A DNA stretch of 39,064 nucleotides from a virus, in the IMG/VR virus record IMGVR_UViG_3300029951_000066. One strand, given 5' to 3'. Every line of letters begins with the position of its first letter. Position 1 is the first letter of the stretch. The position numbers and the translations under genes are program-made. Below, one piece after another: positions 6,895-37,198 of this stretch. A model generated the notes under the pieces. That model was given only the letters and a program-made list of their open reading frames with translations, was not told the origin of the DNA and searched no databases.

Positions 6895-7188
6895 TCATGG
6901 CAATAGCGGTATTGTCCTTTTCCTCCGCTTGCGGCCTCGGACTATGGAGAACTTGACAATCGATGTGCGGTTGTCGTCGCCATTTCCGAAGTGTGCGACG
7001 AGTTCTTCTATAGACAGATCAAGCACTCGGGCTATCTGTTGAGCCTCGCCGAGCCTGACTTCTCGCTTGCCGCTGAGAGTGAGGGACATGCTTGACGGAT
7101 TCATATGGATCGCGTCCGCCAGTTCCTTCTGAGACATCTTGCGGGTCTTGAGCAATGCGCGGAACCATTTCAGGTCAATGTGTCGCAT
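6895..7188 (-). CDS. XRE-family HTH transcriptional repressor (CI-like)
   Basis: HTH motif SQKELADAIHMNPSSMSLTLSGKR; start at internal ATG (MRHIDLK) with GGAG RBS; divergent from a cro-like gene. Confidence 0.8.
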   Translation of the reverse strand: MRHIDLKWFRALLKTRKMSQKELADAIHMNPSSMSLTLSGKREVRLGEAQQIARVLDLSIEELVAHFGNGDDNRTSIVKFSIVRGRKRRKRTIPLLP

Positions 7189-7246
7189 ATTGGATACTCC
7201 AGTGGGGTAATGACAACTTGACCACCGAAGTATAGGAAAGATTCCC

Positions 7247-7275
7247 TTGAGGTGTTCTTGGTGATACGCTAATAT
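7247..7275 (+). promoter_or_regulatory. Putative sigma70-type rightward promoter (TTGAGG-17 nt-TAATAT) for the cro-like gene
   Basis: -35/-10 hexamers with 17-nt spacer; AGAGGA RBS and ATG at 7300 follow. Confidence 0.5.
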
Positions 7276-7299
7276 CAACGAAACGGAAAGAGGACTGCT

Positions 7300-10505: not shown

Positions 10506-10661
10506 ATGCCAGCAGCTAAACAGGGCGAGAAGCTTTCCGACTTCCTCTCGCGGTTTGTGTCATCGAAACGTGAGGATCGCAAGTACTCGAACGTCAAGCA
10601 GCGCCTTGCTTTGGGCTACTCGGAAGCCAGAGAGCAGGCCAAGAAAGGAGTTAGGTCATGA
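10506..10661 (+). CDS. Possible small protein (51 aa)
   Basis: Manual translation with GGAGAG RBS; stop overlaps the HNH start (ATGA). Confidence 0.35.
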   Translation: MPAAKQGEKLSDFLSRFVSSKREDRKYSNVKQRLALGYSEAREQAKKGVRS

Positions 10662-11152
10662 GACGAATTGCGATCGCTAGGTTACATTTTTTGTTGCGCC
10701 TCGATGAAGCGACCGGGTTCCTGTGCTGGCGAGGGGCTAGCTTAGGGCATCACGCCGACGATCGCGCCGGAAGCCTGAAGAGCGATGGGTATCGCCGGGT
10801 CTACATCGATGGTTCGCGCATCTATGAGCACCGAATCACGTTCGCGATGACAAATGGTCGTTGGCCAGATTTGCACGTTGACCATGCCAACGGAGTACGT
10901 GATGACAATCGTCCCTGCAATCTTCGCGAGGCAACAAGGTCCCAAAACAATGCAAATAGTAAGATTTCTTTGCGTAACACCAGTGGGCTCAAGGGTGTCG
11001 GGTTCCACAAGCAAATAGGTAGATTCAGGGCCGACATACGGATTGAGGGGAGCCTCAAGTACCTCGGCCTATTCGATAGCGCAGAAGAGGCGCATGCCGC
11101 CTATATGCGAGCAGCGCAGCAATTCCATGGCCAATTCGCGAGGGCAGCATGA
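10658..11152 (+). CDS. HNH homing endonuclease with AP2-type DNA-binding domain
   Basis: Motifs HVDHANGVRDDNRPCNLREATRSQN (HNH) and SGLKGVGFHK...YLGLFDSAEEAHAAY (AP2-like); AAAGGAG RBS. Confidence 0.8.
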   Translation: MRRIAIARLHFLLRLDEATGFLCWRGASLGHHADDRAGSLKSDGYRRVYIDGSRIYEHRITFAMTNGRWPDLHVDHANGVRDDNRPCNLREATRSQNNANSKISLRNTSGLKGVGFHKQIGRFRADIRIEGSLKYLGLFDSAEEAHAAYMRAAQQFHGQFARAA

Positions 11153-31054: not shown

Positions 31055-31567
31055 CTATGCCTTTGTAAAGCGGCCCGTTCTTTCGTCTCTTCCGCCGCGC
31101 TTATTAGCGAGTTGCTCTTTTCTGGTCGCCCAACGGAAATTATTCGGCGCGTATGGCCCATCATTATCGACGCGATCAATTTCGAGATTCCCGGGCCTTT
31201 CTCCGACGTCAGCGAGAAAATATGGGAAATTCAGCCATCTATCACAGACGACTATTCCCCTGCCACCATAGCAATGGAAGGCTGGATTTTCCGGATTGTT
31301 GCAGCGATCTATCATTGCTCGCCATACCCAATAAAGAGGCGTATTAGATTTTCCGCTCCGAATATACTTCCTTCCTGTCGGAGTAACACATCCGCAAGAT
31401 ATGAGCACGCTTTGCCGGAAACCACTGATGATTTTTTCGTTTCCACAAGAGCATTTACAGAGCCACTGCGTCGACTTCCCATCCCCCGATCCCCTAGGAA
31501 TTCTTCGAATAGCGGTCAGTTCGCCATGAACTTCGCCCGGTTGGATCCGTGTATTTTTATTCGGCAT
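31055..31567 (-). CDS. HNH-type homing endonuclease-like protein, antisense within the virion operon
   Basis: AGGAG RBS; Cys-rich CKCSCGN...CGC plus motif WVWRAMIDRCNNPENPAFHCYGGRGIVVCDRW common in phage HNH/AP2-type proteins. Confidence 0.6.
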   Translation of the reverse strand: MPNKNTRIQPGEVHGELTAIRRIPRGSGDGKSTQWLCKCSCGNEKIISGFRQSVLISCGCVTPTGRKYIRSGKSNTPLYWVWRAMIDRCNNPENPAFHCYGGRGIVVCDRWLNFPYFLADVGERPGNLEIDRVDNDGPYAPNNFRWATRKEQLANKRGGRDERTGRFTKA

Positions 31568-31607: not shown

Positions 31608-33881
31608 ATGGGAACGTCTGTCGTTCAGGCACCTGACGCAATATTGCAATTTTTCAATAATGCGGGGCTACCAAATGTCGGTGGAAGTCTGCTAACCCAG
31701 GTTGGCGGCGTCAACTATCCAACATTCGAGGATGCTGCTGGTAGCACTCCGCTGCCTAATCCGATCCCTTTGAACTCCCGTGGCGAGATTTCCAATTCGT
31801 CCGGTGTATCGAGTCAGCTTTTCCTTTTCGATGCGGTCGTTTATACCTTCACGCTATTCGATGCACACGGAAATCAAATTTGGGTTGCCGAAAATGTCAC
31901 AAGCGGCGGGGCAGAAACAGGCAGCATGACCGACGAAGGCCCATTCCTGGCCGGACCAACATTTACCGGTTCCATCACTGGAACTGCATTGACTATCAGC
32001 GGAGTGACCGGATCGGTTGCCATTGGTCAGACGTTGTTCGGCGCTGGTGTAACCGCAGGAACGACGATCACGGGGGGGGCCGGTACCTCATGGACCGTCA
32101 GCACACCGCAAACCGTCGCCTCTGAGCCAATGTCCTCGGCAGGCACAGATCAGTTTGCGCCTGGATTCAGCACGGTCCTGACCCTGGTCGGTTTCTATGG
32201 CAGCAAGTCGAATCTATGGATCCAGTTCGATGCTGCCTCGCAGGGAGAGGATACGTTTGGCCTCAATAATTTCACGTTGACCTTCAATGCTCCTATCCCC
32301 ATTGGTGTTCAAGCTATCTACATAAAAGGAGGCACTACAGTCAGTATTGGTGCACCCGGAACAGGGACAGTTACAGATTCCACCGTAGCCGCCAATGCAG
32401 GGATCGAGGCATCCAAGCTTTCCTATACTGCGCCCTACACTGGCGCCGTCGCTGAAACTGTCCAGGCACGGCTTTCAAATTCGGTCTCGGTAAAGGATTT
32501 CGGGGCAACCGGCAATGGTACAACTGACGATACGACAGCATTCCAGAGCGCCATCAACTCGGGCGCCACTCGGATCAGCGTGCCGGCTGGCACCTATCTG
32601 ATTACCAAGACGCTCAACTTCACGAATCGTGGGAGCGTGCCTTTAGTCATAAGTGGCGACGGGGGATACTTAGAACAAAATACGGGGACAACGCTTCTAT
32701 TCCAGACGGGCACATGGATGGCCGATATGACTGGCTGTCAATTCCTACATCTAGAGCATATGCGCTGGTTTTCCAATGGCGCCGCGACTGGTTTTTCGAC
32801 GCTAGGCTGTCTGTACGCGAGGTCAACTGTAGTCGGCTTCGCCATATTCAACTCGATGTTCAAGATGATCATTGAGTTGCCGTCAAGCTCAGGAAGTAGC
32901 GCGGGGTCTATCGCGCTAGCAGACAACTGCATGGAAAATTGTCTGTTCGATATGTGCTGGTTTCTTTCCGACACTCCTTATGCTTCCACATTGGCGAATG
33001 AGTTAAGTTTCGTGTCAACGTACGCGACAGTCGCTAACACTACGTTCAGCAATACCGACAAAACGTTTAGGCAATGTATTTTCTTGGCTAGGAACGGAAC
33101 GGGCTGCTTCTTACAGGGAGTGGCCGATACCACATTTGATCAGTGCAATTGGTCTCTAAATGGCGCTCTAGGCGGCGCCATAGCCGCAGCCATGACGATT
33201 TTGTCATCGGCGGATGGTTACCAGAACTGCTCAAACATACGATTCACTGGGGATTTTGAATCATTCCCAGCAATCGCAGCACTTACCGGAAATACAGAAG
33301 GCCTCGTATTCGACTGCACCTCGGCGGGCCTGACAGGTTCGGCATATATCCTAAACACATCGGGCACCACTCACGATGGCATGAAGGTAAAGGTTAATAC
33401 GCTGTCCGGAGCGCAATTGAAGATGATCCTCACTAGCTCCGGATCATCGATAGTGAACAATGCCGAAGTCCATATGAATAATGGGCAGACACTACTAGAT
33501 GGGGCACTCACGATCAATGGCGGGACGATTTACGGCGGAGCAAATGATCTTTCCAATTCTGGCGTTCTGTCGATCGCTCCAGCATCAAGTTTTATCGCAA
33601 CTTACGAGAACTCAAAGCTGACTGGGAGCGTGTCTTGGGCGCCAGGTTCTGTGCCCGGCAATAGTACCGTTCTGTTTCCCGGAACAGTTACAGTGCCTGG
33701 CGCGGTAGGAGGGTCTTCCGTAGCAGTAAAGGTGCCATATGCGATACCATTTTGTATCGCTAGTGGCTTCGTAACGACCAGCAATCAGGTTGAGCTTATG
33801 CTTTCCAATGTCAACGGCGCTGCATCCGCAGCTTTCGGTACTGGCACTTGGATAGTGGAAGTGAAGAAGGTCTACGCTTGA
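31608..33881 (+). CDS. Tailspike with pectate-lyase-fold (right-handed beta-helix) depolymerase-like domain
   Basis: Motif VKDFGATGNGTTDDTTAFQSAINSGATRISVPAGTYLI typical of Pectate_lyase_3/GH28-type tailspikes; N-terminal module shared with the 23926 protein. Confidence 0.8.
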   Translation: MGTSVVQAPDAILQFFNNAGLPNVGGSLLTQVGGVNYPTFEDAAGSTPLPNPIPLNSRGEISNSSGVSSQLFLFDAVVYTFTLFDAHGNQIWVAENVTSGGAETGSMTDEGPFLAGPTFTGSITGTALTISGVTGSVAIGQTLFGAGVTAGTTITGGAGTSWTVSTPQTVASEPMSSAGTDQFAPGFSTVLTLVGFYGSKSNLWIQFDAASQGEDTFGLNNFTLTFNAPIPIGVQAIYIKGGTTVSIGAPGTGTVTDSTVAANAGIEASKLSYTAPYTGAVAETVQARLSNSVSVKDFGATGNGTTDDTTAFQSAINSGATRISVPAGTYLITKTLNFTNRGSVPLVISGDGGYLEQNTGTTLLFQTGTWMADMTGCQFLHLEHMRWFSNGAATGFSTLGCLYARSTVVGFAIFNSMFKMIIELPSSSGSSAGSIALADNCMENCLFDMCWFLSDTPYASTLANELSFVSTYATVANTTFSNTDKTFRQCIFLARNGTGCFLQGVADTTFDQCNWSLNGALGGAIAAAMTILSSADGYQNCSNIRFTGDFESFPAIAALTGNTEGLVFDCTSAGLTGSAYILNTSGTTHDGMKVKVNTLSGAQLKMILTSSGSSIVNNAEVHMNNGQTLLDGALTINGGTIYGGANDLSNSGVLSIAPASSFIATYENSKLTGSVSWAPGSVPGNSTVLFPGTVTVPGAVGGSSVAVKVPYAIPFCIASGFVTTSNQVELMLSNVNGAASAAFGTGTWIVEVKKVYA

Positions 33882-33883
33882 GG

Positions 33884-34495
33884 ATGAAAATGAAACGACT
33901 ATTTATCTCACTGTTCAGTGCAGCATCGATCTGTGCACATGCTGCCACAAATCTCCCGATCCAACTGATAAGCCCGGTTGGTTCGACAAGTGGACAGGCA
34001 ATAGTTTCAACCGGAGCTTCGAGCGCGCCGGCTTGGACTGCGGTAGTTGGCGCATCATCTCCGACAATCACGACTCCGAATATTATCGGTGTAACTAATA
34101 CATCAAATGCGGCAGCTGGAAGCGTAGGAGAGGTCATAACAGCACAGAGTGGGGCAGTTTCTCTCTCGACATCGACATCGACAAATATCATAAGCATTCC
34201 GCTAACTCCTGGCGATTGGGATGTTCGCGGGAATGTTGAGTATGATCCGGCTGGCACGACGATTTTTGTGCAGTCTGTATCTGGAATTTCTGTTACTTCC
34301 GCCACTCTTCCAAGTTCACCATTGAAGGCCGTGAGTAATTACCCAAGCATAGCTGGCAATCAGCAGTCTTCTTTTTTGCCAATTACCCGCGTCAACATTT
34401 CTTCTCCAACTACAGTTTTTGTAGTTGGATTTGCAGGGTTTACGGTTAGCACTTTGACTGCAACAGCATACATTGCTGCTCGACGTATTCGCTAA
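33884..34495 (+). CDS. Secreted Ser/Thr-rich protein with N-terminal signal peptide
   Basis: N-terminus MKMKRLFISLFSAASICAHAATN (K-rich n-region, hydrophobic core, AHA cleavage-like site); lower GC than the genome average. Confidence 0.55.
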   Translation: MKMKRLFISLFSAASICAHAATNLPIQLISPVGSTSGQAIVSTGASSAPAWTAVVGASSPTITTPNIIGVTNTSNAAAGSVGEVITAQSGAVSLSTSTSTNIISIPLTPGDWDVRGNVEYDPAGTTIFVQSVSGISVTSATLPSSPLKAVSNYPSIAGNQQSSFLPITRVNISSPTTVFVVGFAGFTVSTLTATAYIAARRIR

Positions 34496-34504
34496 GGAAG
34501 CAAA

Positions 34505-34678
34505 ATGAGCCTTGATCAAGCGATTCCATGCCGCTGGTGTTCGCATTTCCACGGCGATATTTGTCCGCATGTTAAGGCGCTAGAATTCGCAGAGGATGGC
34601 GTGACTGTCATTCGCGTTGAGTTCCTAACGCCGAACGATCGTCTGCATACCGATATTCCGCACGGAGCGAAGTCATGA
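34505..34678 (+). CDS. Small Cys/His-rich protein (57 aa)
   Basis: Manual translation with AAGGAAG RBS; ATGA overlap with the next gene. Confidence 0.4.
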   Translation: MSLDQAIPCRWCSHFHGDICPHVKALEFAEDGVTVIRVEFLTPNDRLHTDIPHGAKS

Positions 34679-34992
34679 CATTAGACGGTGGATGGGCCCT
34701 GATCATATCAGGCATCCTAGTGATCGTCGTGGGAGGCGCTAGTGCTCTCATATGGCGCCATGTGGATAATGCACAAGGCGACGCGAATGAGGCCCGCAAG
34801 GAAGTTATAGAGCTTTTGAAAGAGATGCACAGGTTCAAGGAAGAGAGTCTGCGTTTCGAGACATACGTCGAAAAAACGTTTGCACGCGTCTCGGGGGTGG
34901 AGCGCATGGAGACGATTCTATCGGCAACGATGGTGCGCTTTGAAACGAAGCTGGATTCACTTCTAGGCCACAGAGTAACGACTCATGGCTAG
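34675..34992 (+). CDS. Membrane protein with one N-terminal TM helix and a coiled-coil domain (holin- or i-spanin-like)
   Basis: TM segment WALIISGILVIVVGGASALIW followed by a charged helical region; immediately upstream of the endolysin. Confidence 0.5.
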   Translation: MTLDGGWALIISGILVIVVGGASALIWRHVDNAQGDANEARKEVIELLKEMHRFKEESLRFETYVEKTFARVSGVERMETILSATMVRFETKLDSLLGHRVTTHG

Positions 34993-35494
34993 AATATCAA
35001 TCGACCTGGCAGGAGGCCAGAACCGAATTGCATTCTTGGATATGGTCGCAGGGAGCGAAGGCACTGTGACCGATCCTGCAACCCTGGACGATGGGTATGA
35101 TGTACTCGTAACTGGTATGAATGGACCGCAGCGGTTCGATAGCTACGCGTCGCACCCTGACGTGCTGGTGACAGTAAATACCAGCGGACTTCAATCTACT
35201 GCTGCGGGCCGGTATCAGCTTCTCTATCGATACTGGCTCGCGTACCAAGCGAACCTCAATTTGCCCGACTTCAGCCCGATCTCGCAGGATAGGATTGCAT
35301 TGCAGCAGATCAGGGAAAGAGGCGCTCTTCCATTTATCGATGCCGGTAATTTCCCGAAGGCAGTTTCTTTGTGCTCGAATATTTGGGCTAGCCTGCCCGG
35401 AAATGGGTACGGTCAGCATCAGAACACTATCGCGACGCTTATGTCAGCCTATCAGTTGGCTGGCGGCACTTTATCGGTCGGAGTTGCTTCATGA
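34985..35494 (+). CDS. Endolysin, lambda R-like lytic transglycosylase
   Basis: Strong motif-level match to lambda R: AFLDMVAGSEGT, GYDVLVTG, AAGRYQLLYRYWLAY, DFSPISQDRIALQQIRERGALPFIDAG, CSNIWASLPGNGYGQ. Confidence 0.9.
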   Translation: MARISIDLAGGQNRIAFLDMVAGSEGTVTDPATLDDGYDVLVTGMNGPQRFDSYASHPDVLVTVNTSGLQSTAAGRYQLLYRYWLAYQANLNLPDFSPISQDRIALQQIRERGALPFIDAGNFPKAVSLCSNIWASLPGNGYGQHQNTIATLMSAYQLAGGTLSVGVAS

Positions 35495-35706
35495 ATTCAA
35501 CCATAACAACATATATTGTTTCCTGCTTCCTATATAGCTTATGGGCGGCTCTCGTGATCTTGGGCAAGGCAGACTCACAACCGCTTACGATCGCGCTAGG
35601 GGCTGGTGTAGCCACCTTGCTGGGCTTCCACGGCGCATACCAAGCAATCACTAAACTCCAAGCGGTCGAGCCAGACCCTTTGGCCCAGGCCGGTGCGCAG
35701 AAATAG
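35491..35706 (+). CDS. Small two-TM membrane protein (holin-like)
   Basis: Two hydrophobic helices in 71 aa; ATGA overlap with the endolysin; GGAG RBS. Confidence 0.5.
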   Translation: MNSTITTYIVSCFLYSLWAALVILGKADSQPLTIALGAGVATLLGFHGAYQAITKLQAVEPDPLAQAGAQK

Positions 35707-36152: not shown

Positions 36153-36626
36153 ATGGGTGCCGTAACCTTCCAATTCGTCGAGGGGAGGGGCCTCAGCTCC
36201 TCTCTAATTGAATGGTTTGATCACGACCGTTACTCTCATGTCGATCTCGTCTTGCGAGACGGCACGTTGCTAGGCGCCCGCGACGATATGATTCTAGGCA
36301 TACCGGCAGGTGTGCAGATTCGCCCGTCCAGTTATGTGGACGGGGAATCAGTTCTCAGGGTGTCGGTGCCGTGCACAGACGAGCAGGAAGCGGCGTTCTA
36401 CGCCTATGCTCAAGAACAGGTGGGGAAGCCATATGACCAAGAAGCCATTGCCGCCTTTGTGGTGGGTCGGAATTGGCGCGATCCTAACGACTGGTACTGC
36501 TCTGAGCTGGGCGCTGCTTGCACTGAGAAAAGCGGGATTGTTCCGCCGTTGATTGCGCCTTGCAACAAGATAGCGCCTGGAGATTTGGCGCTGCTTTTGT
36601 CTGCTCTGGTTGAGATTCAGCCGTGA
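36153..36626 (+). CDS. Putative permuted papain-fold cysteine peptidase (YiiX/C92-like), possible second cell-wall hydrolase
   Basis: His-then-Cys order (YSHVDLVL ... WYCSELGAAC) reminiscent of the permuted NlpC/P60-like amidase family. Confidence 0.45.
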   Translation: MGAVTFQFVEGRGLSSSLIEWFDHDRYSHVDLVLRDGTLLGARDDMILGIPAGVQIRPSSYVDGESVLRVSVPCTDEQEAAFYAYAQEQVGKPYDQEAIAAFVVGRNWRDPNDWYCSELGAACTEKSGIVPPLIAPCNKIAPGDLALLLSALVEIQP

Positions 36627-37108
36627 TTAGCGAACTCTCCGTGAAGTCTTTCCCTGGCCTCATGAAGAGCGTTGCCAGCCTCTTCCTTCGATATGAAATA
36701 TCCCACGCATTTTTGCTTCCCATTGGATTGAAGTCGAGCTACCCATCTCGCACTGTATTTATGCCAAAACACTCCTTTTATTCCAGAAGTGTTATCAGTT
36801 CTAATCGACGCGTTTTGGGCGTTCTGCGAGTGTGTAGCATGCCTCAGATTAAAGAAGCTATCGTCCGATCTGCAGGTATTGCGATGGTCTATTTCATGTT
36901 CAGGGAAGACGCCGGTCATATATAACCAGGCGAGCCTGTTGGCCTTGTAGTTTTTGTTATCGACCATGATCTTTCTGTAGCCATCCGGCTCTATTGATCC
37001 TGCTAGATCGCCAGGCTTCAGACGATTAGAGGAAGGCTTGACCCAAGTGAATATCCCTGTTTCGGGATCATAGTGAAGGACTTCTTTTAGGCGTTCTTGA
37101 GTAAGCAT
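36617..37108 (-). CDS. HNH homing endonuclease with AP2-type DNA-binding domain (paralogue of the 10658 gene)
   Basis: Motifs ERLKEVLHYDPETGIFTW, EIDHRNTCRSDDSFFNLRHATHSQN, SGIKGVFWHK...VGYFISKEEAGNA; GGAG RBS at ATG 37108. Confidence 0.8.
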   Translation of the reverse strand: MLTQERLKEVLHYDPETGIFTWVKPSSNRLKPGDLAGSIEPDGYRKIMVDNKNYKANRLAWLYMTGVFPEHEIDHRNTCRSDDSFFNLRHATHSQNAQNASIRTDNTSGIKGVFWHKYSARWVARLQSNGKQKCVGYFISKEEAGNALHEARERLHGEFANHG

Positions 37109-37198
37109 TTGATCTCCGGTCAAGGAAGTCTGTGGTGTGCGGCAAGCGTTGACTAGACGCTGTTCGGATGCCTCCTAGCCGCACTAAAATCATACCAT

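Follow-up and report, generated by a model that had tools for sequence, protein, structure and literature searches.

The gene that follows the tailspike gene in the IMG/VR virus record IMGVR_UViG_3300029951_000066 (39,064 nucleotides; this whole stretch is called the window here) very probably encodes an exported homologue of a tail fibre tip. As regards its anatomy, we hold with high confidence that the protein is the distal half of a tail fibre in which a signal peptide replaces the part that attaches a fibre to the virion. We propose, at a probability of roughly 0.4, that it is a non-virion, exported receptor-binding fibre tip which masks an envelope receptor late in infection or at lysis. 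The knob in which the protein ends and exported phage exclusion proteins are both known already; what is new is a conserved and widespread class of signal-bearing fibre tips, and in the papers searched such a Sec-signal-bearing class is not described.

The open reading frame (ORF) runs on the + strand from an ATG at 33884 to a TAA at 34493-34495 and encodes 203 amino acids with the N-terminus MKMKRLFISLFSAASICAHA. An initial annotation, made from the sequence by itself, had placed the gene at 33884-34495 and had read its N-terminus as a Sec-type signal. The ORF is real, and both its frame and its stop stand; the start, however, is most likely the second ATG, at 33890, judging from the sequence (coding sequence 33890-34495, + strand, 201 amino acids and the stop), since a ribosome-binding site, GAGGA (33880-33884, + strand), lies 5 nucleotides before this ATG, since homologues begin with MKR or MKK (almost all of them do so), and since P0001, a database protein identical to this one bar one substitution, is called from 33890. 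The GAGGA is found directly 3' of the tailspike stop codon and overlaps the first ATG; a start at 33884 would add MK to the protein. The product is laid out as a signal (amino acids 1-18), a conserved motif (19-49), a linker (50-61) and a knob (62-201). It is rich in Ser and Thr (28.4% together) and in Ile and Val (18.9%), as had been noted, and charged residues make up 6.5%.

The signal (33890-33943, + strand; MKRLFISLFSAASICAHA, then ATNLP) is a canonical one, having MKR as its n-region, LFISLFSAASICA as its h-region and A-H-A in front of the cleavage site that is predicted before ATNLP. Its hydrophobic core of 13 residues is the sole hydrophobic segment of the protein. The assignment rests on the -3/-1 rule and on conservation at the level of the family; the simple signal-peptide rule alone also flags 7 of the 212 ORFs of the window, that is, few spurious ones. 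The canonical pattern (M-K/R, 13-15 uncharged hydrophobic residues, small-x-small) is seen in some 105 of 120 homologues; the family profile found 95 loci, and every one of them has it. Among 168 distinct proteins, position -1 is Ala, Gly or Ser in 167 and position -3 is Ala, Ser, Val or Thr in 158, while +2 is always Thr. There are 165 distinct signal sequences, with a median length of 18 amino acids, and the mean pairwise identity of the 168 proteins is 29% over the last 15 signal residues, 76% over the first 30 mature residues and 38% over the last 40 residues. The properties of the signal are thus kept while its sequence drifts, which is the way real signal peptides evolve. No lipobox (L-[AS]-[GA]-C), a feature that the initial annotation had left in question, is found in the protein: the lone Cys of the signal (SICAHA) follows an Ile and is not conserved in the family. 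The signal likewise contains no twin arginine, and a lipoprotein signal and a Tat signal are ruled out by the absence of the two motifs.

The distribution of cysteines is a further line of evidence. In the signal-bearing knobs these occur almost only as co-occurring pairs, with at least five site pairs in different sub-lineages (co-occurrence in 12/12, 36/37, 10/10, 13/14 and 8/12 cases); zero cysteines are found in gp47 of Pectobacterium phage PhiM1, a fibre discussed below, and in the signal-less copy of the gene in locus L123. An independent sample, consisting of the 57 full-length top matches of a profile of the knob only, comprises 18 proteins with a signal-like N-terminus and 39 signal-less ones. 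The signal-bearing representatives have 0.68 Cys per 100 amino acids versus 0.31 in the signal-less ones, and an even count of two or more Cys is found in 11 of 18 versus 7 of 39 (Fisher p=0.002), the 18 signal-bearing proteins representing four different types of mature N-terminus. The repeated independent gain of Cys pairs argues for disulfides formed in an oxidising compartment. Taken together, these features of the sequences support export well, without amounting to proof, and the typical Sec signal that had been claimed is supported by the family-wide fit to the -3/-1 rule, by the conservation of properties in a drifting sequence and by the Cys pairs of the signal-bearing members.

No Pfam model matches the fibre-tip protein or its knob, and a nucleotide search of the region against phage records gave no match. 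Profile comparisons, in turn, relate the protein to tail fibres. Residues 38-203 match positions 370-538 of the 538 positions of phrog_11393, a tail-fibre PHROG (E=5e-19), and the C-terminal end of the 'Tail fiber (gp47)' of Pectobacterium phage PhiM1 (PDB 8VBX, chain R) is matched by the family profile at E=5e-26. In an hhalign profile comparison, residues 62-201 of the window protein align with residues 397-534 of gp47 at a probability of 99.3% and with 37% identity. PhiM1 gp47 forms six trimeric fibres on the virion (PMC11440229). The same knob is also found at the end of proteins annotated as tail fibres in 78 records of phages (from Pectobacterium, Klebsiella, Enterobacter and others). 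The knob (34073-34492, + strand) ends with a conserved ARRIR, as gp47 ends with ARRVR, and in gp47 and KP34-type fibres, as in the window protein, this homologous domain of about 140 amino acids forms the extreme C-terminus. The two proteins differ in what precedes it: gp47, 534 amino acids long, has an N-terminal attachment domain of T7 type, followed by a coiled coil and a shaft ahead of the knob; it lacks both a signal peptide and cysteines, and six trimers of it are visible on the virion. In the window protein a signal peptide takes the place of the first ~400 residues of gp47. The knob alone aligns to gp47, and a virion-attachment domain is absent from the window protein.

An AlphaFold model (62 sequences) consists of a helix at amino acids 2-18, a low-confidence coil at 19-75 and a beta-sandwich at 80-201 with a predicted local distance difference test score (pLDDT) above 95. 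The low-confidence coil is what a trimeric shaft would give in a monomer model. The knob is modelled as a jelly-roll beta-sandwich of the TNF/C1q type, and from this fold class together with the trimeric state of gp47 we infer that it is a homotrimer. The initial annotation had described a beta-rich periplasmic or surface protein; the beta-sandwich and the Sec signal agree with this, however the protein is not an anonymous one, being the distal part of a tail fibre with a knob of the PhiM1 gp47 type. Since the knob is homologous to a virion fibre tip, receptor binding is its most natural activity. The knob-only profile, searched against 1.84 billion representatives, retrieved 16,695 clusters at E<=1e-3 and 13,609 at E<=1e-10; the proteins of this 16,695-cluster knob family range from 160 to 1,500 amino acids and always carry the knob at their extreme C-terminus. 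In one protein of 1,497 amino acids (P0339) the profile matches at four separate places, and this single chain may therefore contain several knob domains in tandem.

Homologues of the whole protein, 160-360 amino acids long, number 155 in a large protein database, and the gene was found at 184 loci in IMG/VR, mostly on contigs of 37-45 kb, and at 22 loci in genomes of Burkholderiaceae (Paraburkholderia, Cupriavidus, Ralstonia, Trinickia and Caballeronia). The only cultured phages with a homologue are Burkholderia phage BcepC6B (gp19) and Xanthomonas phage PBR31 (gp35). The original annotation of BcepC6B names only gp16 and gp18 as structural (PMC3426561), and the RefSeq designation 'tail fiber protein' of gp19 is therefore a later automatic label. 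The PBR31 paper does not discuss gp35, and no proteomic data for BcepC6B gp19 or PBR31 gp35 were found in the literature. The members share one plan: a signal is followed by a mature N-terminus that hardly varies (ATLNPIQLLNPAGSTSGQAIVSTGASSAPAW in consensus), then by typical fibre repeats that make up a middle part of differing length, and finally by the knob; the window protein is the minimal form of the family. Nearly all of the 18 invariant columns in the family alignment fall within the motif at amino acids 19-49 (ATNLPIQLISPVGSTSGQAIVSTGASSAPAW; 33944-34036, + strand), an element of fibre-shaft type (G..G..I.S.G....P.W), and motifs of this type also occur internally in signal-less fibres. 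A few members keep the signal and the N-terminal motif and carry other C-terminal domains, which match only the distal parts of phrog_863, 6202 and 454 (from about position 325 of 690). From these alignments the family is best described as distal tail-fibre modules with a signal peptide in place of the virion-attachment half.

The gene always lies on the late strand. In 77 of 81 distinct loci an ORF on the same strand ends no more than 30 nucleotides upstream of it, and 22 of these overlap it. In a consensus scan, promoter-like sites within 200 nucleotides upstream were found at 0 of 78 loci (4 of 312 controls), and terminator-like sites downstream were slightly enriched (6 of 78 vs 2 of 312 controls). 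Loci in which the gene seemed to be a stand-alone moron between reverse-strand genes turned out to be artefacts of the gene caller in GC-rich DNA, the gap analysis giving tight late-operon packing. The upstream ORF is of tailspike size in 45 of 81 loci and the lysis genes then usually follow, as in the window, BcepC6B and PBR31. At many other loci the gene is placed after the lysis cassette, beside an integrase, an acyltransferase (O-antigen acyltransferase) or large membrane proteins. In this 'after-lysis' arrangement the last gene of the lysis cassette, directly ahead of the family gene, encodes a conserved protein of 74-79 amino acids (…GSPNETISERAAKARN.G..WGC.LC…; phrog_34710/3342), as at L017:7760-7999, L091:7774-7998 and similar loci.

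At least four unrelated partners are found upstream: tailspikes with a P22 head-binding domain, BPP-1 Bbp9-like fibres, 'LPNAKQQF'-type tailspikes and 'MYSTNDLQKLV' proteins. Fusion to the tailspike by frameshifting or read-through was rejected, as the gaps and the upstream partners vary too much for a conserved recoding site. Two loci have a tandem arrangement, in which the product of the neighbouring upstream gene (L051:4453-6063 and L047:6523-7992) also bears a signal and resembles a fibre or a tailspike; the 536-amino-acid upstream protein of the former contains a pectate-lyase-like domain and resembles an exported depolymerase. A second copy of the knob or of the N-terminal motif was found neither in 82 loci nor in the whole window (0 matches, with a working positive control), and the idea that the protein is a decoy copy of the receptor-binding protein (RBP) of its own phage was rejected for lack of such a paralogue. 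A myovirus-like phage (L137:8001-9626) encodes a signal-bearing knob protein of 541 amino acids, with the mature N-terminus QFVTGQVLTA, between its baseplate wedge genes and a classical, signal-less tail fibre of 477 amino acids. Exported fibre-like proteins are thus not confined to podoviruses.

Relatives of the window phage were selected independently of the gene, by means of their ejection protein in an alignment-based scan, and those with enough downstream sequence were counted. Of the 13 such relatives, eight have the gene with a signal, two have it without a signal, and three lack it, which implies that the gene is accessory. Both the deviant base composition and the patchy distribution of an accessory gene are found here: the GC content of the gene is 47.9% and that of the window 56.0%, the region from 31 to 35.5 kb averaging 50.9%, and the initial annotation was right in placing it in a low-GC region.

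We propose that the gene is transcribed together with the late genes and that its product would be exported to the periplasm and cleaved before ATNLP. There it would fold and probably trimerise, with disulfides forming in the Cys-bearing relatives, and it would not be incorporated into the particle. As a free receptor-binding protein it would bind the envelope structure that such knobs recognise, which is most likely lipopolysaccharide (LPS), some other glycan of the surface or a component of the outer membrane. Until lysis the binding would take place from the periplasmic side; once the cell has lysed, it would take place on membrane debris and on cells nearby. Masking of the receptor may then spare the progeny from loss on debris, exclude competing phages that have such a fibre tip, or both. 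That the protein is not a virion part is suggested by the missing attachment domain, the unrelated upstream partners, the shifting position and patchiness of the gene, and the presence of a classical fibre alongside the exported protein in L137. This agrees with the earlier remark that a secreted protein is unexpected as a virion component, at least as far as a standard role in the virion is concerned. The function, the ligand, the formation of trimers and actual export and cleavage are matters of inference.

A model of this kind is provided by the small exported proteins Llp of phage T5 and Cor of phages phi80, N15 and HK022, which occupy a receptor, excluding superinfection and sparing the progeny. 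The T5 llp gene adjoins the RBP gene of its phage, and cor adjoins the tail-fibre genes in phi80/N15-type phages; for a gene whose product blocks a receptor, a place beside an RBP gene would therefore not be unprecedented. Unlike the window protein, Llp and Cor are lipoproteins that act on FhuA and are unrelated to fibres; the window protein has no lipobox and has a fibre-knob fold, and no sequence similarity to them was detected. Spackle (gp61.3) of phage T4 is, similarly, a soluble periplasmic phage protein made through Sec with a cleaved signal, and it acts against incoming phage; it is, however, a small helical inhibitor of the gp5 tail lysozyme, unrelated to fibre tips, and no similarity to it was found here. 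The pIII protein of filamentous phages resembles the window protein in being a receptor-binding protein with a Sec signal and periplasmic disulfides, but filamentous phages assemble at the membrane and tailed phages in the cytoplasm, and the two proteins are not homologous. Chlamydial Pgp3, the N-terminal lectin of Burkholderia BC2L-C and the knobs of BclA/C1q/TNF type share the fold only (9-15% identity) and are not phage late genes. XepA, encoded by the PBSX element of the Gram-positive Bacillus subtilis, was rejected as a close analogue, since this pentameric protein leaves the cell without any signal peptide and is unrelated to the family in sequence, the match being a weak one of fold only.

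Several points weigh against receptor masking by a free fibre tip. The knob has no paralogue in its own phage and need not bind the receptor of that phage, and a periplasmic protein has no obvious access to receptors on the outer surface before lysis. The conserved mature N-terminus, furthermore, resembles the short anchor peptides of secondary RBPs in some podoviruses. Finally, there is a lineage without a signal. The orthologue in L123 (15993-16733; the same in L125), of 246 amino acids, starts with MTTKVPVQL, and this start coincides exactly with the mature N-terminus that is predicted for the others. The ATG of its gene overlaps the stop codon of the tailspike gene (TAATG), which indicates a clean, translationally coupled start and not a damaged signal. 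The protein shares 53% identity with the nearest signal-bearing relative sampled, the alignment starting right after the signal of the latter, and this identity, together with the intact start, implies an old, intact lineage. The mature protein is, apparently, able to fulfil its role without prior export, and its site of action would have to be reached from both compartments, that is, after lysis, in the medium or on the particle. With such a lineage, a role outside the cell or in the virion is easier to reconcile than one confined to the periplasm.

The main rival reading is a virion role, that of a second, accessory receptor-binding fibre: the signal-bearing forms would mature in the periplasm and join the particle once holin and lysis mix the compartments, the signal-less forms would assemble in the cytoplasm, and the conserved mature N-terminus would be a docking peptide. 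We regard such a fibre as unlikely, although a good deal of the evidence would suit it: the homology to real fibre tips, the RBP-like architecture (a conserved N-terminus, a variable shaft of fibre repeats and swappable C-terminal domains), the place of the gene next to a tailspike or tail-fibre gene in the late operon, the old and intact signal-less lineage with its translational coupling to the tailspike, and the fact that no other knob of this kind is encoded in the genome. Against it stand the absence of an attachment domain and the occurrence of the same N-terminal motif behind at least four tail architectures, including that of P22 type, in which we know of no site for an extra fibre. 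Because motifs of this type also lie inside ordinary fibres, the motif resembles part of a shaft more than a docking peptide. Some relatives lack the gene, at some loci it comes after the lysis cassette, and virion assembly would require a step after lysis for which no precedent is known. We know of no tailed-phage fibre that matures through the periplasm, and the literature search returned no precedent either for such a fibre or for exported fibre-like phage proteins. In a specific form of this idea, which we find rather improbable, tailed phages of Burkholderiaceae would make a fibre that is Sec-exported, trimmed, disulfide-bonded and trimerised and that docks onto finished particles at lysis; the signal-less lineage would then be the ancestral, cytoplasmic version of the fibre.

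The initial annotation had favoured lysogenic conversion or superinfection exclusion, with receptor masking as an example, and masking or exclusion stays our preferred reading. If the protein were a factor expressed from the prophage, an exported, lectin-like trimer would alter or occupy an envelope structure, such as O-antigen intermediates, or would stop incoming phages in the periplasm, which would benefit the lysogen. Export itself, as judged from the signal and the cysteines, is in line with this, as are the GC content of the gene, which is below that of the genome, its patchy distribution, its place in many prophages at the end of the late region beside an integrase, an O-antigen acyltransferase or large membrane proteins, and a CI-like repressor, with which the phage is probably temperate. 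The lom gene of phage lambda exemplifies that genes inside late regions can be expressed in lysogens. Expression in the lysogen is, however, what the genomic setting weakens: with gaps of at most 30 nucleotides at 77 of 81 loci and promoter-like sites at 0 of 78 there is neither room for a promoter nor a sign of one, the apparent stand-alone loci are gene-caller artefacts, and a signal-less lineage exists. We judge this explanation to be distinctly unlikely. An unusual periplasmic lysis accessory, acting for example in outer-membrane disruption or lysis timing, had been named as well, and the data lend it no support, so that it appears highly improbable. The protein matches no lysis family in Pfam or PHROG and has neither a lipobox nor a transmembrane segment beyond the signal; the phages already hold complete sets of holin, endolysin and spanin-like genes; the position of the gene varies with respect to the lysis genes, and relatives equipped with the same lysis genes lack it. 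In a lysis factor one would not expect a receptor-binding tip that diversifies and can be swapped, and XepA has no signal peptide.

The window represents a P22/BPP-1-like podovirus with genes for terminase, portal, scaffold, capsid, tail and ejection proteins. The tailspike (31608-33881, + strand), the phage's own receptor-binding protein, is encoded immediately upstream of the fibre-tip gene, with its TGA stop at 33879-33881. It has a pectate-lyase-like domain (PF12708, E=7e-10) and matches several tailspike PHROGs; its N-terminal 100 amino acids have a predicted fold like the head-binding domain of the P22 tailspike, and residues 100-290 are modelled at a pLDDT below 50, the model being too poor to judge the presence of a T4 gp10-like branching domain. 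The lysis cassette downstream (34675-35706, + strand) comprises a 105-amino-acid membrane protein, an endolysin (34985-35494) that matches phrog_90 (E=9e-54), and a 71-amino-acid protein with two transmembrane segments, the endolysin gene thus having genes of small membrane proteins on both sides. These matches agree with the position between tailspike and lysis cassette that had been given to the fibre-tip gene. The CI-like repressor (6895-7278, - strand) is encoded in a divergent arrangement, and from it the window phage is probably temperate; the ORFs of the window that were scanned include no integrase. Since 38 contigs, the longest of 101 kb, encode an identical ejection protein (P0121), the phage may also exist in an integrated form.

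Other genes of the window deserve mention. There are three HNH homing-endonuclease-like genes (31055-31567, - strand; 36617-37123, - strand; 10658-11152, + strand), with matches to phrog_374 (E=1.6e-50) and phrog_99 (E=1e-68 and 2e-58), and one of them lies antisense between the ejection-protein and tailspike genes, breaking up the late operon. Between the fibre-tip gene and the lysis cassette there is a Cys/His-rich ORF of 57 amino acids (34505-34678, + strand; CRWCSHFHGDICPH), which has no family match and is also present in the near-identical contig L136. Past the lysis genes, an ORF of 157 amino acids (36153-36626, + strand) matches phrog_1128 (E=5.5e-17), which belongs to the moron category ('enoyl-CoA hydratase/carnithine racemase-like').

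The host range of a phage depends mainly on its RBPs, and no other parts of phages are engineered as often. The signal-bearing fibre tips form an unnoticed class, found at hundreds of phage loci, and about one third of the closest representatives of the 16,695-cluster knob family bear a signal. If receptor masking is their role, it would be a new route, derived from RBPs, to superinfection exclusion or progeny protection, and the class would be a source of soluble, naturally secreted glycan-binding modules. Should the fibre reach the virion instead, it would represent an extracytoplasmic branch of tailed-phage assembly, and docking after lysis would be a step of virion maturation unknown for tailed phages. 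Either way, the automatic annotation 'tail fiber protein', as given to BcepC6B gp19, is misleading for the prediction of host range.

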